A stretch of DNA of 64,000 nucleotides from Escherichia phage SSBS18_WS_10_728, in sequence record MT322327.1. One strand, written 5' to 3'. Position 1 is the stretch's first letter, and the number at the start of each line of letters is the position of its first letter. The notes under the pieces were generated by a model, which saw only the letters and a list, made by a program, of their open reading frames with translations, had not been told where the DNA came from and did no database searches. Below, one piece after another: positions 26,584-63,993 of this stretch. Position numbers and translations under genes: made by a program.

Positions 26584-26660
26584 CCAGACCAAGTTTTAAA
26601 TTTTTTCAAAATTAAATTGGCTTGAAAATATCATACGTGCTTGCTGAATTTGGTCTTCTG
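26584..26660 (-). ncRNA. Y-like hairpin element, copy 2 (no tRNA-like domain)
   Basis: Same closing stem with compensatory change (CCAGACCA ... TGGTCTTCTG) and conserved CAGCAA motif next to the stem. Confidence 0.3.
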
Positions 26661-26748
26661 CTCCTTTAAAGAACACTCGTAAGAACCCTTTAAGGGAGGG
26701 GCTAAAATAGCCCTCTCAAAACATCATCTTGAAATACTTATTATAATT

Positions 26749-26826
26749 TGGCGGTTACGAAGGGATTTGAACCCTCATCATCTCCCGTGACAGGGGAGTA
26801 TTTTAACCAGATTAAACTACATAACC
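26749..26826 (-). tRNA. tRNA-Asp (anticodon GTC)
   Basis: Acceptor GGTTATG/CGTAACC, anticodon stem-loop CTCCC-CTGTCAC-GGGAG, T-arm GAGGG-TTCAAAT-CCCTT, G73. Confidence 0.7.
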
Positions 26827-26832
26827 TTTATT

Positions 26833-26920
26833 TGGTGTGCCGTGTAGGAGTCGAACCTACCGAGTCTCAATGACAAGGGATTTACAGTCCCCACCGCTAC
26901 CATCTACGGGATAACGACAC
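26833..26920 (-). tRNA. tRNA-Tyr (anticodon GTA), type II
   Basis: Acceptor GTGTCGT/ACGGCAC, anticodon stem-loop GGGGA-CTGTAAA-TCCCT, long variable arm, T-arm GTAGG-TTCGACT-CCTAC, A73. Confidence 0.65.
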
Positions 26921-26929
26921 ATTTAAATT

Positions 26930-27006
26930 TGGCGGTTAGTCAGGGATTCGAACCCTGTGCCATTCGCTTAACAGGCGACCGCACATACCTTATGTGCTTC
27001 CTAACC
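26930..27006 (-). tRNA. tRNA-Asn (anticodon GTT)
   Basis: D stem GCAC/GTGC, anticodon loop CTGTTAA, T-arm CAGGG-TTCGAAT-CCCTG, G73. Confidence 0.7.
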
Positions 27007-27037
27007 TTAATACATTGCCAGACCGTGTTTTTTCTTT

Positions 27038-27077
27038 TATCCGCAAAAAGTATTTTGTTGCTGAATACGGTCTTCTG
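27038..27077 (-). ncRNA. Y-like hairpin element, copy 3 (short)
   Basis: CCAGACCG ... TTGCTGAATACGGTCTTCTG with AT-rich interior, between tRNA-Asn and the second tRNA-Met. Confidence 0.3.
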
Positions 27078-27083
27078 CAAAAT

Positions 27084-27160
27084 TGGAGGCGGGTGCAGGA
27101 GTCGAACCTGCCGATACCATGCTAATGAGACATGTGAGACGCCCTTTCTCTATACCCGCA
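27084..27160 (-). tRNA. tRNA-Met (anticodon CAT), second copy; unpaired 1-72 hints at initiator
   Basis: Anticodon stem-loop CATGT-CTCATTA-GCATG, D stem GAGA/TCTC, T-arm GCAGG-TTCGACT-CCTGC; first acceptor pair mismatched. Confidence 0.55.
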
Positions 27161-27171
27161 ATTCTTAATGA

Positions 27172-27244
27172 CCAGACCAAATCTCTTCTTTGTCCGATTT
27201 ACCTTCAGATGAATAAGATTAAGTTTGCTGTAATTGGTCTTCTG
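27172..27244 (-). ncRNA. Y-like hairpin element, copy 4
   Basis: CCAGACCA ... TTGCTGTAATTGGTCTTCTG; covariation with copies 1 and 3 preserves pairing. Confidence 0.3.
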
Positions 27245-27251
27245 TCAAAAC

Positions 27252-27329
27252 TGGCGTTCCAGAAGGGATTTGAACCCTCAAATATCCACTTTGAAAGAGT
27301 GGTGACTTTACCATTTTGTCCACTGGAAC
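27252..27329 (-). tRNA. tRNA-Glu (anticodon TTC)
   Basis: Acceptor GTTCCAG/CTGGAAC, anticodon stem-loop CCACT-CTTTCAA-AGTGG, T-arm GAGGG-TTCAAAT-CCCTT, G73. Confidence 0.7.
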
Positions 27330-27336
27330 ATTAATT

Positions 27337-27413
27337 TGGTCTCTGTTGGAGGACTTGAACCTCCGGCCTTACCGCCCCAAACGGAACGCTCTACCAAGCT
27401 GAGCTAAACAGAG
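27337..27413 (-). tRNA. tRNA-Pro (anticodon TGG)
   Basis: Acceptor CTCTGTT/AACAGAG, D-arm GCTCAGCTTGGTAGAGC, anticodon loop TTTGGGG, T-arm GGAGG-TTCAAGT-CCTCC, A73. Confidence 0.7.
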
Positions 27414-50924: not shown

Positions 50925-51003
50925 CTTATTACTCTCTCTTGTTAGTTAATAAATCATTTTGTAAGGCTATTCTAAGGGGCTTTGAAGCCCCTTGTCAAAC
51001 ACT

Positions 51004-53370: not shown

Positions 53371-53418
53371 AATACTTTCCTCTTAGTTTACTGTTAAGTC
53401 ACTTATTAAACATTTTAC

Positions 53419-53575
53419 CAGAACCGCCACACATAGGGCAACAACCTGCTCTTGTATAACCTTCTCCATTACAGTAGTCACATTTTTTGTGCTCTGCATA
53501 GTACTTGCAAAGAAGGTAAACAAACACTGCTACACTACCAAGTGACAGTAAAATTTCTATCCAATACGCTTGCAT
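53419..53575 (-). CDS. small membrane-anchored zinc-finger protein (not in ORF track, below 60 aa)
   Basis: 52 aa by manual translation: MQAYWIEILLSLGSVAVFVYLLCKYYAEHKKCDYCNGEGYTRAGCCPMCGGSGKMFNK; TM helix plus two CxxCxGxG motifs. Confidence 0.3.
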
Positions 53576-53904
53576 GACTCACCTCTCATATTCTTGTAAA
53601 GGATAAAACTTCTGTCATGAACAATACTTGTAGACACTGCAAAATTACTTTCAAGCATCTGTTTGTTTGGATTGTAGAAGCTTTCTTTAAACTCGTCAAG
53701 TGCAAATTGGTGATTGTCTGGAAGACCTTTTACACAGACCTTTATTGTAATTGCTGCTGCAACCTTGCCAGTCAGTTCTTCTTTGGCTGCTACTAAGATT
53801 TTGTTAAGGAACTTATGACCATTTTCAGGCTTCTTGATGTTCTCCCAACGCTCTTCTAAGACAATATTGATGTTCATTTCTTTGATTTTCATAATTTTTA
53901 CCAA
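53557..53904 (-). CDS. hypothetical protein
   Basis: 115 aa ORF. Confidence 0.35.
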   Translation of the reverse strand: MVKIMKIKEMNINIVLEERWENIKKPENGHKFLNKILVAAKEELTGKVAAAITIKVCVKGLPDNHQFALDEFKESFYNPNKQMLESNFAVSTSIVHDRSFILYKNMRGESCKRIG

Positions 53905-54242
53905 GTCCAGTTAACGAGGATGCCATCGAAACCTTTTGCTAAAGGTACACCCTCGTGTTCATAAAACTCAGGATTAACTTCGAATCCACGATTTTCAATA
54001 TACTCTATCATGTATTTCATTACAAAGCTAATCTCTTCGTAGTCATCTGGGTCTCTGCCAAAGAACTGTTCTATGACAAACATACCTTCTTTTGTAGCAA
54101 ATTGGCAGTGATGATTGTAGACACCTTCACAAAACTTTTCAAACTTTTCTTTACCGAGAACTTCAAGGATGTCTGTATAGGCAACTTGTAAGTATTTCGG
54201 TTGTACAGGTTTCTTGTTAAACCATATGGAAAGGTTGTCCAT
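53898..54242 (-). CDS. hypothetical protein
   Basis: 114 aa ORF. Confidence 0.35.
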   Translation of the reverse strand: MDNLSIWFNKKPVQPKYLQVAYTDILEVLGKEKFEKFCEGVYNHHCQFATKEGMFVIEQFFGRDPDDYEEISFVMKYMIEYIENRGFEVNPEFYEHEGVPLAKGFDGILVNWTW

Positions 54243-54257
54243 AGCATTCTCCAGAAA

Positions 54258-54280
54258 TTAAAAAGGCTCCCGTAGGAGCC
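54258..54280 (-). terminator. intrinsic terminator
   Basis: Hairpin GGCTCCTACGGGAGCC followed by UUUUUAAUUUC on minus strand, after NAMPT-like gene. Confidence 0.65.
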
Positions 54281-54295
54281 TCTTATCATATACTT

Positions 54296-56095
54296 TTAAA
54301 GCTGCTTGTCAATATTATTTCGAATATCACCAAGAGTTGTGTAGCCGAACTGCTCAGAGTCGCTAAAGACCAAGCGTAAAGCACAAGCTGGGTGTTCAAG
54401 TGCATCTGCAAAGCTTTGGAACCCATAGCCATCTACAGCTTTCAGATTTTCACCATCCCACATAGGTGCTACACCACCAAAAGCAGACTTCTTAACACCG
54501 CTGTCTGTTTTAGGGTCTTTTGCAAGCATAATCTCTTTACCACCAATGCTTGCCAGAGTTGCTTTAACAGCAAATGCAAAGGTGTCACGAGTCATGTACT
54601 GGTAAGTGTAAGAACCTACACCAAACACTACGTTAGAGCTTGCAAAACCCATTTCATACAAACGTTTCAGGATTTCGTTTGCACGTTCCAACGTGATAGA
54701 GTCACCATAAATAAGCCCGATATGCTCATCCAGTACTTTAAAGCCTTTAGAGTTGATAGTTCCTCCAAAGATATTATACAGTGTCTTGATAGCTCCATCA
54801 ATCTCCGCTACAGGACGTGTGACAACGTTTGCAGAACCAACCATATAAGCGTTTTTCAACAGCACTGTATCAGCAACTTCAAAGTCTTCTCTGTCAACAA
54901 CCATTTCGTAGCCTTCTGACAGTAGCCACCCAGCAATACCATAGTTGATGTTTTCAAGCTTCATGTTCAGAACAGCATTCAACATTGTGTCGCTGGCTTC
55001 CAGCTTGCTTAGGTGTTCGTAATAAGCCTTTTTAGCACACTCTAAGTGGATTGCTTTATAGCCTGTGACAATATGTACAGGGTCTCCAGAGTCAGGACGA
55101 ATTACCAGTTTGCCATCACGTTCCATAATCTCTTTACGGAGTTCTGGGAGTATCACTGATACAGTTCTCCAGAAGTTATAAGTATCTGAAACAACACTTG
55201 CAATACCAGTTGGGTAAGTTTCTGTTAAGAAACGACGGAAGGTTTGTAACTCACCTTTAAAGCGTCTTTCTTCTTCAATCAACTCATTCCCACCTTCCCA
55301 AGCAATGTTTGCACACATGACAGAGTGCTCGGTGGCTGGTACAGAACTACCAATATCAGAGATTGGGTAGGACTGCCCATAGATGCGTTTAGCTGTATAC
55401 ACAGCAGGGAAGCTATCAGTCCCTTTAAAGCTGGTTAAGTGACCTACAGCGTTAAATGCGTCATCAGTAAAGCCGGACATACCACGCATAGCAAAATCAT
55501 GGCACTGATAAGGTAAATGTAAGTCATTGTCACAAGTAAGGTCAGACCACTTCTTACAGATACGTTTGTAGTGCAATGCAATAGTTGCAATGGTACAAGC
55601 CTTCCAAATCTCAGCAGAGAAAGCATCTTCCAGATACCCCGCTACCCAATGGAAACCTGAAACAGTGTTCTGGAAGACAACCATTGGTACACGCATAGGA
55701 ACAACTGTGCCTTCTTCTACAGCGTATACTTCAACTGGTAGATAACCTAAGTCGTGAAGTGCTTCCCAATGTTCTCGACCAATAGCATCTTTACCCAGAA
55801 CACCGTTCATGACTTCTAAGATTTCGTCAATTGCTTCTTTTTTGTCACGTTCAAAGAAGGTGGCGTTCCAGTGGTCTATCAAGTAATCTTTAACAAAACG
55901 TTGAATACCAAAAGCTACTACACCATCAATTGCTAAAGGGCTGTTAAACCATTTATCACTACGTGGTGTCAGGTTAAACATCAAGTACTCTGTCGCACTA
56001 GGATACTGATAAATATGGCCAGACTTGTAAGCATCCGCGTTTAAACCTGCTGGTACTGCATAAAGTGATTTAGTCATCTTTTTAATCTCTCTCAA
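54296..56095 (-). CDS. nicotinamide phosphoribosyltransferase-like protein (NAMPT/NadV family; possibly Namat)
   Basis: 599 aa; NAMPT-family character along full length; adjacent to Prs-like gene. Confidence 0.75.
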   Translation of the reverse strand: MREIKKMTKSLYAVPAGLNADAYKSGHIYQYPSATEYLMFNLTPRSDKWFNSPLAIDGVVAFGIQRFVKDYLIDHWNATFFERDKKEAIDEILEVMNGVLGKDAIGREHWEALHDLGYLPVEVYAVEEGTVVPMRVPMVVFQNTVSGFHWVAGYLEDAFSAEIWKACTIATIALHYKRICKKWSDLTCDNDLHLPYQCHDFAMRGMSGFTDDAFNAVGHLTSFKGTDSFPAVYTAKRIYGQSYPISDIGSSVPATEHSVMCANIAWEGGNELIEEERRFKGELQTFRRFLTETYPTGIASVVSDTYNFWRTVSVILPELRKEIMERDGKLVIRPDSGDPVHIVTGYKAIHLECAKKAYYEHLSKLEASDTMLNAVLNMKLENINYGIAGWLLSEGYEMVVDREDFEVADTVLLKNAYMVGSANVVTRPVAEIDGAIKTLYNIFGGTINSKGFKVLDEHIGLIYGDSITLERANEILKRLYEMGFASSNVVFGVGSYTYQYMTRDTFAFAVKATLASIGGKEIMLAKDPKTDSGVKKSAFGGVAPMWDGENLKAVDGYGFQSFADALEHPACALRLVFSDSEQFGYTTLGDIRNNIDKQL

Positions 56096-56123: not shown

Positions 56124-57026
56124 TCAATCAATGGTTACTACAGTAACTTGTGCATAATGTGTTAAGCCACGGTCTTTAGCTTCCCCTAAAGAGTTTGTAG
56201 TGTAGATATGGTCAATACCATTGTCAAGTAAGTTTTCAACCCCTTTAGAGAAAATGCCATGAGTTACATAGAGTTCCACACGTTTTGCACCTGCTTCACG
56301 AAGATGTTTAGCTGCCTCTATGAAGGTTCGACCACCATCACAAATATCATCCAGAATCATGACGGTTTTATCTGTCAAATCAACATCATCAAGGATTCGC
56401 ATACCAGTAATTTCACCAGTCTTAAGGTTGCGTACTTTAGACATTGTGATATATGGTTTATCCACCTCTTTAGCAGTCTCTTCAGTCTTCTTAGCTGCAC
56501 CTGCATCTGGGGCTACCAAGAAATCAATGCGTGGGTCACTTGCAAAGTGTGCTGCTACATCTTTTTGCTTCATGCTCTGAAAGCACTTAAATAAGTTTTC
56601 TGCAACATTACTGTGAGGGTCAAGAGCACATACTGCATCAAAACCCATTGCATTAACGAGGTTGGAAAAAGCTTTCAGTGCTGCTGAATCACCTTTGAAC
56701 ATATGGCGGTCATATCGAGCATTCGGTAAGAACCCGAAAACAACGGTTTTCATCGCTGATTTGTATGGAACAAGGCTGTCAACGGCATCCTTAGCCAAAG
56801 CTAATGCAAACAGTGTATCTTTATCATATCCCTGCACAGTCAATATAACATTGTCAATCTTACCAGCATTACGCTCAGTAAACTTAACAAAATCTTCAGA
56901 GAAGTTTCCACCAATTTCTCCAGATGGGAATTGGATGATATTAAATTTTTCTGTGTGGAAGAATTTCTCTTGTGCGGTGACAACGGCTTCAATAATAGTT
57001 TTCATAGCTCTCTCTCTCTTAATCAA
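56124..57026 (-). CDS. ribose-phosphate pyrophosphokinase-like protein (Prs family; possibly Adps)
   Basis: 300 aa; PRPP-binding loop VMILDDICDGGRTF. Confidence 0.75.
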   Translation of the reverse strand: MIKRERAMKTIIEAVVTAQEKFFHTEKFNIIQFPSGEIGGNFSEDFVKFTERNAGKIDNVILTVQGYDKDTLFALALAKDAVDSLVPYKSAMKTVVFGFLPNARYDRHMFKGDSAALKAFSNLVNAMGFDAVCALDPHSNVAENLFKCFQSMKQKDVAAHFASDPRIDFLVAPDAGAAKKTEETAKEVDKPYITMSKVRNLKTGEITGMRILDDVDLTDKTVMILDDICDGGRTFIEAAKHLREAGAKRVELYVTHGIFSKGVENLLDNGIDHIYTTNSLGEAKDRGLTHYAQVTVVTID

Positions 57027-57324
57027 AAGTTACGTTTGTTACTGCCATTGCAGATTTGCATTTTGCAGGGTCTACAACGTGATAAAGTACACTACAGTTG
57101 CCTGTGCTGTCTGGTACAGGTTTAACCCATTGTTGCTTGACAGTTGGTTCTCCTAAGTCTTTGTAAGAGCCATCTGTAAAATTGTTTACCATCTCAAGTG
57201 CAATTGGTTCTGGAACATGACCACGAATCATATACATCTCACAACCATTTCCAGCATCACTTATTAGGTCTTTTATTTCCCAATCTGCTTTAGCCATTGT
57301 AAGTTGCCCTATAAACTGTCTCAA
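57019..57324 (-). CDS. hypothetical protein
   Basis: 101 aa ORF. Confidence 0.35.
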   Translation of the reverse strand: MRQFIGQLTMAKADWEIKDLISDAGNGCEMYMIRGHVPEPIALEMVNNFTDGSYKDLGEPTVKQQWVKPVPDSTGNCSVLYHVVDPAKCKSAMAVTNVTFD

Positions 57325-57805
57325 ACTTCAACAGGAGAGATATTGCCAAATCTGTATAGTTGTTGTCAAGCACATCTGGCATATTATTTTTGATATATTT
57401 CTCTTGCTCTTCATAGGTCATCTTAGGAATGCTTAGGAGTCTATCTCCTTGCTTCTGGTTATCAGCTTTAGTTTGGATAAACCAGTTTGCACAGTGATGC
57501 TCGCCACCTTTTGTAACAGGCTTGTGGTGACCTAATGTGAAGGACTGGTTACCTGTGTACCTACAAAGCTTATTGAGCACTGCAATGGTGTTCTTAACAA
57601 CAAAACATTCATACAGGTTGTCTATGGTGTAATATGGATAATAGCGGAATAGTGCTCTTTCACGAGTACTATCACGATTCCAGAGAATCATGTGATTTGA
57701 GTTAGAAGGGTCGTATTGGTGGGAGTCAATGAACTCTTGACGTTCCTCAAAGCTTAGTCTTAGAACTGACATTGCAGCCGAACGTTTTAGATTTGACAGA
57801 TACAT
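57290..57805 (-). CDS. HNH endonuclease
   Basis: 171 aa; HNH motif LGHHKPVTKGGEHHCANWFIQTKADNQKQ. Confidence 0.6.
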   Translation of the reverse strand: MYLSNLKRSAAMSVLRLSFEERQEFIDSHQYDPSNSNHMILWNRDSTRERALFRYYPYYTIDNLYECFVVKNTIAVLNKLCRYTGNQSFTLGHHKPVTKGGEHHCANWFIQTKADNQKQGDRLLSIPKMTYEEQEKYIKNNMPDVLDNNYTDLAISLLLKFETVYRATYNG

Positions 57806-57856
57806 TTTATCTCCAAAATAAAAAGGGAACCTTTACAGTCCCCTTATAGTATCTGT

Positions 57857-58177
57857 TTACTGAGCTACTTTCAAGATGCTTGTGAACGAGATTTCACTCT
57901 CATCCATAAACTCTTTTGCTTCTCCAGTAACTTTTACAAAGTTATCTAGGCAGATAATCTTCTTATCTTTCTTGCTGTAGGTTAGTTTAACCTTTTCAAT
58001 ATCTTTCTTAGAGCTTTCCTCTTCATTGAAGAGTTTTACAGCTTCTTTGAATGGTAGATATGAGCCGTCATCATCACTAATGAACCCTGTACCACAATAG
58101 TAGTAGTTATGTTCTTTAGCCATAAACTGGCACAGTACGAAAATCTGTAATTTACGAGTGTTATAAACTTTGCTCAT
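57857..58177 (-). CDS. hypothetical protein
   Basis: 106 aa ORF. Confidence 0.35.
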   Translation of the reverse strand: MSKVYNTRKLQIFVLCQFMAKEHNYYYCGTGFISDDDGSYLPFKEAVKLFNEEESSKKDIEKVKLTYSKKDKKIICLDNFVKVTGEAKEFMDESEISFTSILKVAQ

Positions 58178-58179
58178 GA

Positions 58180-58464
58180 TTATTTAGCCTTCTTGTTACG
58201 TTTACGGTTACGAGCTTTCTTAGCTGCACGTTTAATTGCTGCTGCACCAGTTGGTCGATGTGCTTGTTTTTTACCACCTTTTCCACGTCCAACGTGGATG
58301 TAAGGCTGCTGTTCAATTTGGCTTGCAAGAACCTGTGCAACTGCTGAAGCATCTACACCAACTTGCTTTCCAGTCATAGAAACAATTGCTGCTGCTTTTG
58401 CCAGTGCCTTCAAGAAGCCAGCTTTCATATTACCTAAAATTCCCATTTTTAGTCTCTCTCTCAT
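58180..58464 (-). CDS. small highly basic protein (possible nucleic-acid binding)
   Basis: 94 aa; Lys/Arg-rich C-terminus GRGKGGKKQAHRP...KKARNRKRNKKAK. Confidence 0.35.
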   Translation of the reverse strand: MRERLKMGILGNMKAGFLKALAKAAAIVSMTGKQVGVDASAVAQVLASQIEQQPYIHVGRGKGGKKQAHRPTGAAAIKRAAKKARNRKRNKKAK

Positions 58465-58820
58465 TAAAGTTTAATACAGAACTTATGAAGTTCTTCTTCA
58501 GTGATACCTATCGGAGTGATACCTTCTCTGATATTTTGAATCCTGTAGAAGTCTCCAAACTTATCTGATTCATGAATGACAAACGTGACATTCTTTACAA
58601 TCGTTGCAAGAGCACATAATGAACGTGAACCAAATTTTTCTCTCGTATAAATCATCCAAGCATCTAACTTGTTGATGTCGTAAGTCCACTTACCAGAATA
58701 ATCATTCTGCTCGCCATTGACAATCACCTTGCCACCCATACTCTTTTCTCCAGAGGTTTTGGTTATCAGAACCACGATATGGTTTAACTGTGGGTTTAGA
58801 TGAATCATACTTACCATCAA
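58464..58820 (-). CDS. hypothetical protein
   Basis: 118 aa ORF; 5' end overlaps NrdG gene, true start probably internal. Confidence 0.3.
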   Translation of the reverse strand: MMVSMIHLNPQLNHIVVLITKTSGEKSMGGKVIVNGEQNDYSGKWTYDINKLDAWMIYTREKFGSRSLCALATIVKNVTFVIHESDKFGDFYRIQNIREGITPIGITEEELHKFCIKL

Positions 58821-59187
58821 TCACCACGTCAACATATTTCATCACATCTAGGTGGATTTTTTCGTGTAACTGAAAACCTGTCCAAAGCCATATAGACTTT
58901 TCTGGATAAACAGTTTTAATACGCTTGCATATGTTGGTGACCTCTTGAATGTTTCTATCATCCAGAGGCTCCCCACCAAGTATTGATAGCCCACTGATGG
59001 CCTTATCATCCATTAACTTAATGATGCCGTAGAGGTTTGCATAAGTAAACTCTTTACCAGCATTAAACTTCCAAGACTCCCTGTTAAAGCAGCCTTCACA
59101 GTGATGTTTACAGCCAGCTACGAAGAGACTTACACGAACCCCTTCACCATTAGCTGTGTCAAATGGTCGAATCTCCATGTAATTCAT
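58702..59187 (-). CDS. nrdG: anaerobic ribonucleotide reductase activating protein (radical SAM)
   Basis: 161 aa; CxxxCxxC cluster GCKHHCEGC near N-terminus; adjacent to NrdD. Confidence 0.7.
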   Translation of the reverse strand: MNYMEIRPFDTANGEGVRVSLFVAGCKHHCEGCFNRESWKFNAGKEFTYANLYGIIKLMDDKAISGLSILGGEPLDDRNIQEVTNICKRIKTVYPEKSIWLWTGFQLHEKIHLDVMKYVDVVIDGKYDSSKPTVKPYRGSDNQNLWRKEYGWQGDCQWRAE

Positions 59188-59218
59188 CTAGTTACCTCAC
59201 CAATACTATTTAATTGTT

Positions 59219-59614
59219 TTACTCATACACTACCTGACAAGGAACATATTTAGTAATAAACTCTTCACAGTGCTCTTTAATGAAGTCTTGTAAGAGCACA
59301 CAGTCTTGTGCACAAGTCATGAGTGCAATATACTCTGGGTTCATAATGTTTTCAATGGTGTAGAAGACAACATTGTCAGATAATTCATGACCGTCTTCTT
59401 CAGACCAAGTTCCAGTGACTACAGCTAGTTTATCAAGTAACTCATTAGTTAATGCTACACCGTCTTCTACGGAATCACTTAGAACGTTGTCACTGATATA
59501 CAATGTGAAGGTTGTATGGAATATTGAATATCTTACGTGACTCTTTTCGCAAGAGCCACACTCTGAGGCGTAATCTTTAATCCACTCTAACTGTTTTTTG
59601 TTCAACTTAATCAT
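59219..59614 (-). CDS. hypothetical Cys-containing protein
   Basis: 131 aa ORF. Confidence 0.35.
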   Translation of the reverse strand: MIKLNKKQLEWIKDYASECGSCEKSHVRYSIFHTTFTLYISDNVLSDSVEDGVALTNELLDKLAVVTGTWSEEDGHELSDNVVFYTIENIMNPEYIALMTCAQDCVLLQDFIKEHCEEFITKYVPCQVVYE

Positions 59615-59811
59615 AATTTCACCTTAGTTGGCAATGCACTGAATGCTATAGCTAACCCTAAAAATGGTTTGAAGCATGACCATAAATCCATCTGACCATG
59701 ATATGCGAAACTCCATTGTGGGTCTGAAAAACCCCATACCATAACACTAACCCCAAAGAAGAAGATTAGTATGTGGAGTATGTATATCAACGTTTTTGGT
59801 GTTTTAAACAT
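59611..59811 (-). CDS. hypothetical small membrane protein
   Basis: 66 aa; two hydrophobic helices. Confidence 0.35.
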   Translation of the reverse strand: MFKTPKTLIYILHILIFFFGVSVMVWGFSDPQWSFAYHGQMDLWSCFKPFLGLAIAFSALPTKVKL

Positions 59812-59965
59812 TTTAACTTATCTCTCAACTCACAATAGGAGAGTCCTAAAAAGAACCCTAGTAAGACAGAACCTATGAAAAACCCAATAATACTCTCTGC
59901 CATATCTAACATCCAATAAAAAAGGTGATGTAAGCCTATCAAGACTCACACCACCTTGTCAAGTT

Positions 59966-62110
59966 TTACATAGAGACTCTATCACGAATCTCAGCAATTT
60001 TTGCATCGTTCATTCGGGATTCACCTTTAATCTTAGTCCACCCAAGATACCCACACACCCTGTTAATCACAGAGATATCATGTGAATGGCAAACCTCACA
60101 TTCTTCAACATCAGCCTTTGGTCTGTTACCACAATGCTCACAGATTGCTAGGTCAAAGTTAAGTCCCTGATAAAAACCTTTCAGCATCCCTCTTGTAATA
60201 CAACTCTTAAGTGCTGTTAAGTTTTCTGGGTTAGCTACCCTGACATACTGGATTCTGCCACCTCTACAGATATGGAAGAATGGCTCTTCTAAGTCCTGCT
60301 TCTCAAATGGTGAGATGTCTGCTGCAACATTCATATGGAAACTATTTGTAAAGTATTCCTTGTCAGAAACACCTTTGATAACACCAAACATTTCTCTGAA
60401 CTGTTTTAGCTGAGTTCCACAAAGTGATTCTGCTGGAGTACCATAGACAGCGTATAAGAAGCCATCTTCATTTTTAAACTCTTCAGTTTTCATGTTGATG
60501 TATGCCAGAACATCGTATGCAAAACTATAGCTTCCAACTTCATGAAGTCGTTTACCTTCAGCGAGAACAGATAACTCATCAAGCGCAGTAACCCCAAAAG
60601 AAGCTGTGAAGGACTTCACGATATCCCAACCAACCTTATCAGTAGGCTTCTTAGTCCCTTTGTACAGACCACCTTGTGTGAACGCAAGAGGGTTAGAGCT
60701 TGCTGGCATGTTAGCAATCATTTCATAGCGTTTCTTGTGGAAGCTGCGAATCATCTCTAGGTACTTATCAAGCTCTTTCCAGAAATCTAAACCATTATCT
60801 TTAGAATACTGGTAAATCATTGGCAAGTTCAAAGATACAGCACCAATGTTAGCACGACCTACATAGAACTCTTCCCCATTCTCGTTAAGATATGGAGATA
60901 AGAAAGCTCTGCAACCCATCGGTGAAATCACCTTACCAGAACGCTTAAAAGCATCTGCTACAGCACCATGACCAGATACACTTAAGAAATCTGGATACAT
61001 CGCTTTAGAGCAACACTCAATAGCTTTTTCAAACAACCTTGCTTGGCATACATCAAGTTTATGTCTTGTCTCTTCATAGATATACACAAGTTTAGGAAAC
61101 ACAACAGGTTTTTTGCTTTTTCCTTGCCCGTTCATCCTTACATTAAGGATTGTATTGGCAATCATAAACTGAAGGCGGTTATCTTCATTGTGCATATCTG
61201 GTTCCAACAGGCCAAATGTCAGAGTAGTAAATGCAAAATCACCGCGACTGCAAGGAACAGTGTTAAGTTTCATTTCAAGAGATTGGAAACCTTGTGTTAA
61301 CTCATTCTGTAATTGCTCCATTACGTAATTATAGTGTTGCTCTTTAGGTATTCCGTACTCTTCAGCTTTCTCTGAGTGGTACACTAAAGATTTTTTAGCA
61401 TACGGTACAAGTACCTTGTCAATCTCTGCTAAAGTAAAGCCACCAAATTGCTGTGCAGTTGCTGAAAGAACTACATCACCAATAACCTGTAAGGCTGACA
61501 GCACAGACTTCGGTTCACAGTATTCAATTCCAGACATTTCAAAGCCACCTTTCAGTACTTTACCAATGTCGAACAGGCAACAGTTGATACCACCAAAAAT
61601 TAGGTCTCTCAAGTCATGGATGTAGATAAACCCTTTTTCAATGGCTTCAAGTTCCTCTGGTGTTAAATGGTACTGTTTAAAGATTTCTTTAGTCAGATAA
61701 CCACGAATAATTGAACCTTTTGTAGAAATTAAACTGCTGTCAAAGTTAGCATTTTCACGGTCACCTAAGAAGAGTGTATCTCTAGTCTTTTGGTAAAGCT
61801 CGTCCCAATTTTGAGCAACCTCTTTACGGTAATTTCTATATGTTGAGTAGGACTCATAAATCTCGTGATTAACTTCTGCCAAAGCACCCTCAACAATACT
61901 GTGAATATCATTTACCGAGATGAGCAAATTATTCTGCTTAGTGGACTTTACCAGAATCCTCATAAATGCTGACTCAAGAGCTTGGGTAACATCTGGTGGA
62001 AGTTCTTTATACCCAACCCTGTTAGCTGACTTAGTTACTGCTGCTAAAACTTTTTTGATATCAGGTTCTTCAAGTGAGCCATTCTTTTTAATAATCTGTA
62101 CTTTGTTCAT
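59966..62110 (-). CDS. nrdD: anaerobic ribonucleoside-triphosphate reductase (class III)
   Basis: 714 aa; N-terminal ATP-cone-like region, C-terminal zinc ribbon CEHCG...CEVCH and glycyl-radical motif RVCGYLG. Confidence 0.85.
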   Translation of the reverse strand: MNKVQIIKKNGSLEEPDIKKVLAAVTKSANRVGYKELPPDVTQALESAFMRILVKSTKQNNLLISVNDIHSIVEGALAEVNHEIYESYSTYRNYRKEVAQNWDELYQKTRDTLFLGDRENANFDSSLISTKGSIIRGYLTKEIFKQYHLTPEELEAIEKGFIYIHDLRDLIFGGINCCLFDIGKVLKGGFEMSGIEYCEPKSVLSALQVIGDVVLSATAQQFGGFTLAEIDKVLVPYAKKSLVYHSEKAEEYGIPKEQHYNYVMEQLQNELTQGFQSLEMKLNTVPCSRGDFAFTTLTFGLLEPDMHNEDNRLQFMIANTILNVRMNGQGKSKKPVVFPKLVYIYEETRHKLDVCQARLFEKAIECCSKAMYPDFLSVSGHGAVADAFKRSGKVISPMGCRAFLSPYLNENGEEFYVGRANIGAVSLNLPMIYQYSKDNGLDFWKELDKYLEMIRSFHKKRYEMIANMPASSNPLAFTQGGLYKGTKKPTDKVGWDIVKSFTASFGVTALDELSVLAEGKRLHEVGSYSFAYDVLAYINMKTEEFKNEDGFLYAVYGTPAESLCGTQLKQFREMFGVIKGVSDKEYFTNSFHMNVAADISPFEKQDLEEPFFHICRGGRIQYVRVANPENLTALKSCITRGMLKGFYQGLNFDLAICEHCGNRPKADVEECEVCHSHDISVINRVCGYLGWTKIKGESRMNDAKIAEIRDRVSM

Positions 62111-62158
62111 TATTGCCCCTTTACATGCTAAAAAGGTCTCCGAAGAGACCCTTTCATT

Positions 62159-62365
62159 TTAAATCTTTTTAGAAAACTTTGAAATGAGTTTTCTTAGTTT
62201 TTTAGTGATGCCTAGCTGTATCTCTAATATTTCAATGATAACCCATAGTAACATGGCTCCAAACAATGAACCTTGTTCAAAATCAGTAAATAGGTTAACA
62301 ACAAGCATACCAATCACAATGGCTGGTGCATCAACAACCAAGCCTTCCCAAAGGCGTTTAAGCAT
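62159..62365 (-). CDS. hypothetical small membrane protein
   Basis: 68 aa; hydrophobic segments. Confidence 0.35.
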   Translation of the reverse strand: MLKRLWEGLVVDAPAIVIGMLVVNLFTDFEQGSLFGAMLLWVIIEILEIQLGITKKLRKLISKFSKKI

Positions 62366-62600
62366 TATTCACCTCTGCCATAAAATTCTGTAGTGTTCCG
62401 ACAGGCTTTAGATTTTGACCATCCGTTTTCATGATGAATGGCATCTGGCGAACTGGCATCTGTGCAATATCTATCAGGTCTGACAGTTCATAATCCTGCC
62501 CTAACATTCTCACAACATGGTCAACACCACGAGCTTTTGCAAAATTCTTTGCAGTCTCACACTGAGGGCATCCAGTTTTGGAGTAAATTACATAAGTCAT
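62358..62600 (-). CDS. glutaredoxin-like protein (NrdH/Grx)
   Basis: 80 aa; CPQC active site in thioredoxin-fold context. Confidence 0.7.
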   Translation of the reverse strand: MTYVIYSKTGCPQCETAKNFAKARGVDHVVRMLGQDYELSDLIDIAQMPVRQMPFIMKTDGQNLKPVGTLQNFMAEVNNA

Positions 62601-63673
62601 TAAGGAACCTCTAAAAATCCACTATTCAAATCATCTACAACAGTATTCAATAAATACGCACCGTTCTGTTGCTCCTGATTAGCATTCTGCTCTTTATCAA
62701 TTTCCATCTTCTTAATCATATACTTCAAAGGTGGTTCTTTAGGAGCTACAAAATCTCTAGGAATGCCAAACATATCATACAGTGGGGCAGCATTATAGTA
62801 AACCCACTCATGAAGAAGCTTTGTATTTAACCCAACTACAGCACGTCCTTCGGAGAAGATATAATACGACCATTTTTCTTCGCTTTCAACTACTTCATCT
62901 AAGATTACTTTAATCTCTGGAAGAATTTGTTGGAAAGCTTTTTGCCACTCATCATCTCTTAAAGTTTCTTTTAAAACTTCAATATCAATTTTAGTGTGAA
63001 GGATTTCATCAAGCATAATTTTCTGGACAGCTTGAGCAATACCCTGAAATTTATCTTGAGCATCAAGTGCAAAAGTACATGCAAAGGATGCCATAAAGGA
63101 TATACCTTCCAGTGCAGTCACTGCAAATAGACCTTTTAGAATCACTTTATGGAAGTGCAAAGGGTCTTTGTCCAGAAGTGAGTCACGGACATAACTCAGC
63201 CGATAGTTGATACCTTCATCCAGCAATTCTTCAAGAACACGATTCACAGTTTTTAATCGGTCTTGTACAGCAATGTTCTGGTTAATCTCATCTAAGATTG
63301 TTTCAGGGTTTTTAATACACTGTCTTACAATCTCCGAGTAAGTAAGAGCATGTAGGTTTTCAATCTCAGACTGCTTCATAATTGCAGTTGCATAAATGTC
63401 ATCAGAGATGAATGGTGCAAAAGCAAACGCTAAACTCTTAGCAACTTGGGTGTCTGCTTCCCACTGCCACTTAAGAATCTCAAGCATTACACCTGACATT
63501 GATGCTGGTACGCTTTCAAAGTCAAGACGTGATTGTTCAAAAGGGAACTCATCTTCTGACCAATCTTGTGCTTTTTGTTGTTTGTACAGTTCAAAGATTT
63601 TTGGGTAGTGTTTATTAAGTGAGTCAAATGTCTTTCTCTCACCACCTAAAAAGATTGGGTGTTGGTTAATCAT
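62600..63673 (-). CDS. ribonucleotide reductase small subunit-like protein (ferritin-like diiron)
   Basis: ORF-track ORF 62600..63733 trimmed to ATG 63673 with AAGGAG RBS; ExxH motifs (ENLH, EILH). Confidence 0.6.
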   Translation of the reverse strand: MINQHPIFLGGERKTFDSLNKHYPKIFELYKQQKAQDWSEDEFPFEQSRLDFESVPASMSGVMLEILKWQWEADTQVAKSLAFAFAPFISDDIYATAIMKQSEIENLHALTYSEIVRQCIKNPETILDEINQNIAVQDRLKTVNRVLEELLDEGINYRLSYVRDSLLDKDPLHFHKVILKGLFAVTALEGISFMASFACTFALDAQDKFQGIAQAVQKIMLDEILHTKIDIEVLKETLRDDEWQKAFQQILPEIKVILDEVVESEEKWSYYIFSEGRAVVGLNTKLLHEWVYYNAAPLYDMFGIPRDFVAPKEPPLKYMIKKMEIDKEQNANQEQQNGAYLLNTVVDDLNSGFLEVP

Positions 63674-63993
63674 AGTGTGATTTCTCCTTTCTTTATCATC
63701 TCTAAGGCTTGTTTTCTGTCTAAAACTTCCCAATTTTCTTTGTTAAACATGTCATAAGGTCTTGCATAGATTTTACCATCTGCTGTAGAGATGTAAGAGA
63801 CACCAGCGACCCATGAGTCATCCTTCTGTTTTATCATCATATCTGTGCTACTCACATAGTACAGCGTTTTCCGAGGTTTGTGGAGCAAGTATATGGGCCA
63901 TTCGTGATTTGCTATTAAGTCTTTCATAGTTTCTCCAAAGTTATTTTTAGAGGGTCTTTTACGACCCTCATAGTTATTAAAACTAAACACCAC
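63670..63993 (-). CDS. hypothetical protein
   Basis: 107 aa ORF at window edge; start uncertain. Confidence 0.3.
   Translation of the reverse strand: MVFSFNNYEGRKRPSKNNFGETMKDLIANHEWPIYLLHKPRKTLYYVSSTDMMIKQKDDSWVAGVSYISTADGKIYARPYDMFNKENWEVLDRKQALEMIKKGEITL

Follow-up and report, generated by a model that had tools for sequence, protein, structure and literature searches.

A predicted membrane-tethered DnaJ-type zinc-knuckle micro-protein encoded immediately upstream of rIIA in Felixounavirus and related phages

Introduction

Cysteine-rich knuckles of the DnaJ type that lack a J domain, such as Anti-TRAP, BSD2, and FIP, act as protein-binding surfaces. Anti-TRAP of Bacillus subtilis, which binds TRAP, is a soluble protein with a C-terminal helix for oligomerization, and some plant DnaJ-like fingers are reported to have protein disulfide isomerase activity; CYO1 is said to be a protein disulfide isomerase in the title of the paper that describes it. 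To our knowledge, characterized examples of the J-domain-less design come only from plant thylakoids (FIP and LQY1) and from Bacillus, where Anti-TRAP is a soluble form of it. DnaJ itself combines a J domain and C-terminal domains with a Cys-rich domain (PF00684; PDB 1EXK) of four CxxCxGxG repeats and two zinc centers. This Cys-rich domain is a substrate-binding element (PMC5915565). Plant FIP, which lacks a J domain, carries a hydrophobic transmembrane (TM) anchor and, C-terminal to it, a C4 zinc finger made of two CXXCXGXG repeats; the finger lies on the stromal side, equivalent to the cytoplasm, and FIP works by contacting the protein FtsH5 (PMC5915565). LQY1, also of thylakoids, has a DnaJ-like zinc finger (PMC4806229).

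Here we describe a 58-aa micro-protein encoded on the minus strand of a 64,000-nucleotide stretch of phage DNA (MT322327.1), the whole of which is referred to below as the window. The micro-protein has the CxxCxGxG repeat in common with the DnaJ Cys-rich domain, in two copies instead of four, and it shares with FIP a J-less architecture, with a predicted TM anchor N-terminal to its two repeats. FIP-type proteins, in contrast, are eukaryotic, larger, equipped with a transit peptide, and found only in land plants (PMC5915565), whereas the micro-protein is a small phage product, and the resemblance between the two may be convergent. The family to which it belongs is one of J-less DnaJ-type zinc-knuckle proteins, here predicted to be membrane-tethered.

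The Micro-Gene and Its Public Records

The micro-ORF opens at a minus-strand ATG at 53575 and runs to a TAA stop at 53399-53401, as given by the ORF list and its translation (Table 1). A sequence-only reading of this DNA had described a 52-aa product ending at 53419; the frame is open for 58 aa, and an end at 53419 would deprive the second motif of its last glycine, Gly53, and the protein of its KMFNK tail. That reading had also noted that the ORF falls under the size cutoff of the ORF track, which is correct for a 58-aa ORF against the default of 60 aa, and had called it unannotated, which holds only for an ORF track with this cutoff, since an identical 177-nt CDS has already been called in public records. 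This CDS appears as a "putative membrane protein" in Escherichia phage C600M2 and in Bas63 (bas63_0083), as a "hypothetical protein" in RefSeq typing phage 1, and as a "Hypothetical membrane protein" in Tribble, where Felix O1 NP_945023.1 is cited; many further records have it as a called CDS. The micro-protein is 100% identical to the Felix O1 product, the feature being labeled "unknown" there, and two public records label a family member "dnaJ" or "chaperone protein." The micro-gene is thus already catalogued, and its architecture had been recognized correctly.

Escherichia phages CL1 and C600M2 share 97.9% identity with the micro-gene region, and 251 phage records match it, almost all of them belonging to the Felix O1 group; the window is from a Felixounavirus. 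At the protein level, the window copy is an ordinary member of phrog_3931, which it matches over its full length (E 9.2e-34, 116.4 bits, residues 1-58 on positions 1-59 of a 59-position profile) and whose orthologs include NP_945023.1, bas63_0083, RB49ORF046c, and phiEa21-4 gp117.

TABLE 1. Features of the micro-gene and its surroundings, listed in the direction of the minus strand; positions are those of the window.
Feature	Position	Strand	Basis and remarks
nrdB-like gene	62600-63733	-	ribonucleotide-reductase block 58702-63733
Glutaredoxin gene, 80 aa	62358-62600	-	ribonucleotide-reductase block
nrdD	59966-62110	-	ribonucleotide-reductase block
nrdG-like radical-SAM activase gene	58702-59187	-	ribonucleotide-reductase block
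PRPS-like gene	56124-57026	-	corresponds to Bas63 pair bas63_0079/0080
NAMPT-like gene	54296-56095	-	corresponds to Bas63 pair bas63_0079/0080
Promoter-like site TTGACA-16-TATGAT, 11/12	54285-54312	-	consensus scan
Terminator-like hairpin AAGAGGCTCCTACGGGAGCCTTTT	54261-54284	-	abuts promoter-like site 54285-54312
114-aa ORF (orf114)	53898..54242	-	phrog_20372; first gene after terminator; variable among relatives
Upstream 111-aa ORF (orf111)	53557..53892	-	phrog_4262; end overlaps micro-ORF start
Shine-Dalgarno-like GAGAGGTGAG	53578..53587	-	read from sequence; GAGG core 6 nt before ATG
Overlap of micro-ORF start and orf111 end, 19 nt	53557..53575	-	ORF coordinates
Micro-protein CDS	53399..53575	-	ORF list and translation; 58 aa; TAA 53399-53401 included; product MQAYWIEILLSLGSVAVFVYLLCKYYAEHKKCDYCNGEGYTRAGCCPMCGGSGKMFNK
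Predicted TM helix codons, residues 5-23	53507..53563	-	mean Kyte-Doolittle 2.11 over 19 residues
First CxxCxGxG, C32 D Y C35 N G37 E G39	53459..53482	-	motif scan
Second CxxCxGxG, C46 P M C49 G G51 S G53	53417..53440	-	motif scan
rIIA homolog, 788 aa	51004..53370	-	phrog_612, E 5.8e-188; 28 nt downstream of micro-ORF
Promoter-like site before rIIB	50969-50998	-	promoter scan
rIIB homolog, 369 aa	49815..50924	-	position matches annotated rIIB in Bas63, Sf13, SUSP1

Evidence That the Micro-Gene Is Real

Several lines of evidence bear on whether so short an ORF is a gene. A six-frame translation of the 64-kb window contains two CxxCxGxG matches, both within the micro-ORF, compared with a mean of 0.17 matches in shuffled windows, and a pair of such motifs inside one ORF occurred in none of 200 shuffles of the window. 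Across 19 distinct Felixounavirus alleles, variable sites are distributed over the three codon positions as 6/5/28, and dN/dS, with the window copy as reference, is mostly 0.02-0.07; the corresponding values for Mooglevirus and Suspvirus alleles are 0.06-0.23. All 28 orthologous loci that were retrieved keep the frame open. Loss of the frame in relatives had been named as a finding that would refute the micro-protein; the frame is conserved under strong purifying selection, and the refutation fails. A Shine-Dalgarno-like GAGAGGTGAG ends 2 nt 5′ of the micro-ORF ATG, and a purine-rich GGAG, GAGG, or AAGG lies upstream of the ATG in every lineage checked. The 19-nt overlap with the upstream 111-aa ORF makes translational coupling to that ORF possible; an identical overlap is found in Mooglevirus and Suspvirus and is absent in Kolesnikvirus and Pectobacterium phage Arno162.

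The reading that the ORF is a chance one and is not translated could appeal to its length of 58 aa and to the literature, in which no transcriptome, proteome, or essentiality data on the micro-gene were found and in which HIDEN-SEQ does not mention Bas63 or Felixounavirus. Against it stand dN/dS values of 0.02-0.23, the persistence of the frame in different genera, at 27-55% identity and with the motif residues unchanged, the conserved Shine-Dalgarno-like motif, and the failure of shuffling to reproduce the motif pair. This pattern of conservation effectively refutes the chance-ORF reading, whose probability we put close to nil, and shows, at the level of sequence, that the micro-gene is real, conserved, and under strong purifying selection.

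Architecture and Membrane Topology

The micro-protein is predicted to consist of an N-terminal TM helix followed by two CxxCxGxG motifs, CDYCNGEG and CPMCGGSG, on the minus strand. Both elements had been noted in the sequence-only reading and are borne out here, the helix by the hydrophobicity of residues 5-23 and by an AlphaFold model in which the helix of the micro-protein spans residues 3-28. In an alignment of 15 homologs with identity as low as 27%, the TM helix is kept in every member, and the invariant residues are M1, C32, C35, G37, G39, C46, C49, G51, and G53. The remaining cysteines, C23 and C45, vary among the aligned homologs and are dispensable. An acidic residue, E7, is conserved near the N-terminal end of the TM helix, and S11, one turn further on, is Ser in most members. 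The motif invariance in these homologs, along with the match of the family profile to 1EXK discussed below, supports the earlier description of the product as a micro-protein with a membrane anchor and a DnaJ-type zinc finger, both of these being predicted.

By the positive-inside rule, the flank of a TM helix that is rich in Lys and Arg lies on the cytoplasmic side of the membrane. None of the 15 aligned members has a Lys or Arg before the helix and every such residue follows it, so that an N-out/C-in orientation is predicted, which would place the Cys4 knuckle in the reducing cytoplasm; the case for this topology, drawn from sequence, is good but not certain. Because the 15-residue stretch that follows the helix carries a net negative charge in Mooglevirus, the argument is based on Lys and Arg counts and not on net charge. 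The CxxCxGxG motif by itself would be compatible with a periplasmic knuckle, since exported CxxCxGxG-repeat proteins exist among the profile matches. Six metagenomic proteins of 96-131 aa (P0024, P0038, P0041, P0042, P0061, and P0085) carry a signal peptide or TM anchor at the N terminus as well as at least four CxxCxGxG repeats, and membrane-tethered or exported arrays of DnaJ-type knuckles look like a recurrent architecture. The multi-repeat relatives with a signal peptide or anchor all begin with an n-region of the MK or MKK type.

Relationship to DnaJ and Anti-TRAP

The profile of the micro-protein family matches the Cys-rich domain of E. coli DnaJ (1EXK) with E = 6e-6, both halves being aligned, and tblastn searches with family patterns reach true DnaJ proteins of phages, with 39-45% identity to their zinc-finger region. 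The fold predicted for the micro-protein likewise resembles the DnaJ Cys-rich domain, a similarity that comes from modeling. Searches against curated libraries give scores below the family thresholds, with 15.6 bits against a gathering score of 32.7 for PF00684 (DnaJ_CXXCXGXG) and 18.6 bits against a cutoff of 27 for DUF5351 (PF17302). No J domain was matched in Pfam or NCBIfam, and the HPD motif is absent from the 58 residues. Nor did the micro-protein match any redox-enzyme family in Pfam or NCBIfam, and the PADLOC models of known anti-phage defense systems returned no match at E ≤ 1 for the micro-protein, orf111, or orf114.

Anti-TRAP (RtpA; PDB 2BX9/3LCZ) has the same CxxC-10-CxxC spacing as the micro-protein, in which the zinc site is a prediction, and residues 11-34 of the 3LCZ chain align without gaps to residues 31-54 of the micro-protein with all four cysteines coinciding. 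The scores for the Anti-TRAP families fall below threshold (9.3 against 32 bits for PF15777 in Pfam; 11 against 65 bits for NF058604 in NCBIfam), the only helix of the micro-protein is N-terminal and hydrophobic, unlike that of Anti-TRAP, and we know of no TRAP system in the hosts of these phages. By its sequence, the micro-protein is half of a DnaJ Cys-rich domain with a single putative Zn(Cys)4 site of the Anti-TRAP type. When a viral structure library was searched, the best matches were orthologs and many small uncharacterized phage DnaJ-like knuckle proteins; small zinc-knuckle ORFs are common in phages.

Distribution in Two Phage Clades

In a word-indexed search of 5.8 billion proteins, only 13 clusters match the micro-protein. 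An exhaustive profile search gave 679 matches at E ≤ 0.001, most of which are multi-repeat CxxCxGxG proteins that have the motif alone in common with it, and added a few small relatives beyond the 13 clusters. Beyond Felixounavirus, each Ounavirinae lineage sampled has orthologs with 27-57% identity: Mooglevirus (Sf13, Michonne), Suspvirus (SUSP1), Kolesnikvirus (Erwinia phage Panisse, phiEa104), and Pectobacterium phage Arno162. A second clade, of 52-59 aa proteins, belongs to T4-type phages of the RB49-like group (Krischvirus) and to metagenomic contigs related to them. In Panisse (locus L053, 2673-3638), the micro-ORF is annotated as "dnaJ / chaperone protein," a label that is an over-annotation because the J domain and HPD motif are lacking.

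The RB49-like micro-ORF overlaps the 3′ end of nrdH in every member examined. The overlap with the preceding gene, which encodes ∼90 aa and is the nrdH glutaredoxin gene where annotated or detected, amounts to ∼8-11 nt (L007 2995-3153, L043 4001-4177, L046 393-554, and L045 520-699), and gene 55.2 follows the micro-ORF where the next gene is known. T4 itself lacks an equivalent, and candidates in other settings were rejected: the T4 ORFs near nrdH (55.4, 55.6, and 55.8) have no CxxC pairs, T4 rIIA.1 is a Cys-free soluble helical peptide, and the ORFs upstream of the RB49 rIIA are unrelated. A multi-gene module common to both clades was likewise rejected, orf111 and orf114 having no detectable homolog in the RB49-like, Kolesnikvirus, and Arno162 contexts.

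Gene Neighborhood

On the minus strand of the window, the genes for NrdB, glutaredoxin, NrdD, and NrdG are followed by further ORFs (57019-58820), the PRPS-like and NAMPT-like genes, and a promoter-like site with a hairpin, after which come orf114, orf111, the micro-ORF, rIIA, a second promoter-like site, and rIIB. The ribonucleotide-reductase block shares the strand of the micro-ORF and is found 5-9 kb upstream of it, and elsewhere in the window 26 tRNA genes, all on the minus strand, are clustered at 22385-27413. The stretch 54261..54312, where hairpin and promoter-like site abut, probably bounds the transcription unit to which the micro-ORF belongs, and the records of Tribble and Michonne have an annotated terminator at the corresponding position. 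In the Shigella phage Sf13, a Mooglevirus (locus L004, 3114-3165, plus strand), an identical hairpin sequence and the promoter-like site are kept, and the proteins that flank them are only about 55-65% identical. The 62-nt spacer between micro-ORF and rIIA in Sf13 holds an 11/12 promoter-like TTGACA-18-TATAGT (L004, 3682-3711, plus strand), and the 28-nt spacer of the window is too small for a promoter serving rIIA.

The Bas63 counterparts of the PRPS-like and NAMPT-like genes, bas63_0079/0080, encode Adps and Namat, and the NARP1 NAD+ reconstitution pathway, a counter-defense pathway, was discovered there (10.1101/2024.02.11.579819). The public labels of the pair are still ribose-phosphate pyrophosphokinase and nicotinamide phosphoribosyltransferase. 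The rIIA and rIIB proteins are described in the literature as a counter-defense against RexAB. With the NARP1 pair upstream and rIIA/rIIB downstream, the micro-gene therefore lies between two counter-defense modules, and it stays between the NARP1 operon and rIIA/rIIB while neighboring small ORFs are gained or lost among relatives. In the window, the slot between the NAMPT-like gene and the micro-gene holds orf114 and orf111; it contains only orf111 in Sf13 and vB_EcoM_E9, a 71-72-aa ORF with orf111 in Michonne and SUSP1, and a ProQ-like ORF (annotated as an RNA chaperone) with an unrelated 113-aa ORF in Panisse, and it is empty in Arno162; orf114 is thus absent from vB_EcoM_E9, Sf13, and Arno162.

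Two records, MG065668.1 ("Campylobacter phage A126") and MG065659.1 ("C5"), contain rIIA sequences typical of E. coli phages, that of A126 being 98.6% identical to Felixounavirus rIIA, which suggests that the records are mislabeled or contaminated.

Proposed Mechanism and Alternative Readings

We propose that the micro-protein crosses the inner membrane once (bitopic, N-out/C-in) and that its cytoplasmic Zn(Cys)4 knuckle binds a partner protein, which it recruits to the membrane or sequesters there; we hold this reading to be probable by a narrow measure. In this model, the micro-ORF would be translated from its own Shine-Dalgarno sequence as part of one transcription unit with orf114, orf111, and, in Felixounavirus, rIIA. 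The N-terminal tail, very short, free of Lys and Arg, and with one conserved acidic residue, would face the periplasm, and the single TM helix (about residues 5-23) would anchor the protein in the inner membrane. After a short linker, 24 cytoplasmic residues would contain both CxxCxGxG motifs, with C32, C35, C46, and C49 holding one zinc ion. On the cytoplasmic side of the inner membrane, the tethered knuckle may then recruit or sequester a protein of the phage or of its host, and its role would be that of an accessory host-takeover or counter-defense factor and not that of a chaperone or structural protein. This role as a membrane tether is one that we infer from the J-less knuckles with known roles, which bind proteins; rIIA/rIIB is only one candidate partner.

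The location of the micro-gene, just before the rIIA-like gene as had been observed from the sequence, suggests a narrower reading in which the micro-protein is a dedicated rII partner, its TM helix providing an anchor and its zinc knuckle docking rIIA/rIIB at the inner membrane of Ounavirinae hosts. We regard this as rather unlikely. In each of the five Ounavirinae lineages examined, rIIA directly follows the micro-gene, even at an rIIA identity as low as 41%, whatever other ORFs intervene upstream and even where those ORFs are missing; the gap is only 28 nt in the window, and neither rIIA nor rIIB has a TM segment of its own (the maximum 19-residue hydropathy of rIIA is 1.29). However, this linkage is limited to a single subfamily whose synteny is conserved overall anyway. 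A scan for CxxC-pair ORFs within 1.5 kb upstream of rIIA, which found the Ounavirinae positive controls in six of six cases, detected none at 12 diverse non-Ounavirinae loci, T4 included, where rIIA.1 is unrelated. The RB49-like copy adjoins nrdH, far from its own rIIA, and in Mooglevirus the 11/12 promoter-like site separates the micro-ORF from rIIA. The RB49-like, T4, 12-locus, and Sf13 results together indicate that the rIIA linkage is a subfamily-specific synteny, and as a sign of rII partnership it is suggestive but weak.

The nrdH overlap in all RB49-like members examined points in another direction, to a membrane-bound thiol-disulfide oxidoreductase or a redox-sensitive zinc switch working with glutaredoxin. 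The glutaredoxin and anaerobic ribonucleotide-reductase genes upstream in the window, the extra cysteine beside C46 in most members, and the redox activity reported for some DnaJ-like zinc-finger proteins (CYO1) are consistent with it. We nevertheless judge this reading improbable, since the Ounavirinae micro-gene is not adjacent to glutaredoxin, Cys45 is replaced by Pro in P0010, P0033, and P0133, by Val in Panisse, and by Ile in Arno162, the invariant GxG is typical of structural zinc knuckles, and redox-enzyme families gave no match. That the tethered knuckle might instead modulate host membrane proteostasis by binding FtsH or clients of DnaK/DnaJ is suggested by FIP, which has the same J-less architecture of a TM segment and two CXXCXGXG repeats and binds FtsH5, and by the substrate-binding function of the DnaJ Cys-rich domain (PMC5915565); this is an analogy of architecture, the gene context offers no pointer to FtsH or DnaK, and we consider it very unlikely. 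Still less probable, in our estimation, is a reverse N-in/C-out topology in which a periplasmic, disulfide-bonded Cys-rich domain would act in lysis timing or superinfection exclusion. In its favor, the micro-protein is small, is predicted to span the membrane once, and is encoded beside genes annotated as "lysis inhibitor," and exported CxxCxGxG-repeat proteins do exist, but the exported relatives carry classical MKK n-regions, whereas no member of the family has a Lys or Arg before its TM helix, where an acidic residue is conserved instead, and the "lysis inhibitor" label of rII is historical.

Implications

The boldest form of our proposal is that, in the Ounavirinae, the micro-protein is the missing membrane receptor that docks the TM-less rIIA/rIIB or, more broadly, that it could be a new membrane-tethered zinc-knuckle counter-defense factor, one by which an immune or stress protein of the host would be sequestered at the membrane, a role that would be common to the RB49-like clade; we offer this as a speculation that we consider unlikely. 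In its more general form, as a membrane tether with a protein-binding knuckle, the proposed mechanism would, if true, provide a phage case of a J-domain-less DnaJ-type knuckle tethered to the bacterial inner membrane. Among the phages that carry the micro-gene is Bas63, which belongs to the BASEL phages of E. coli K-12 and is genetically tractable. A small, conserved putative anchor beside rIIA is a cheap hypothesis for how rIIA/rIIB may associate with the membrane.
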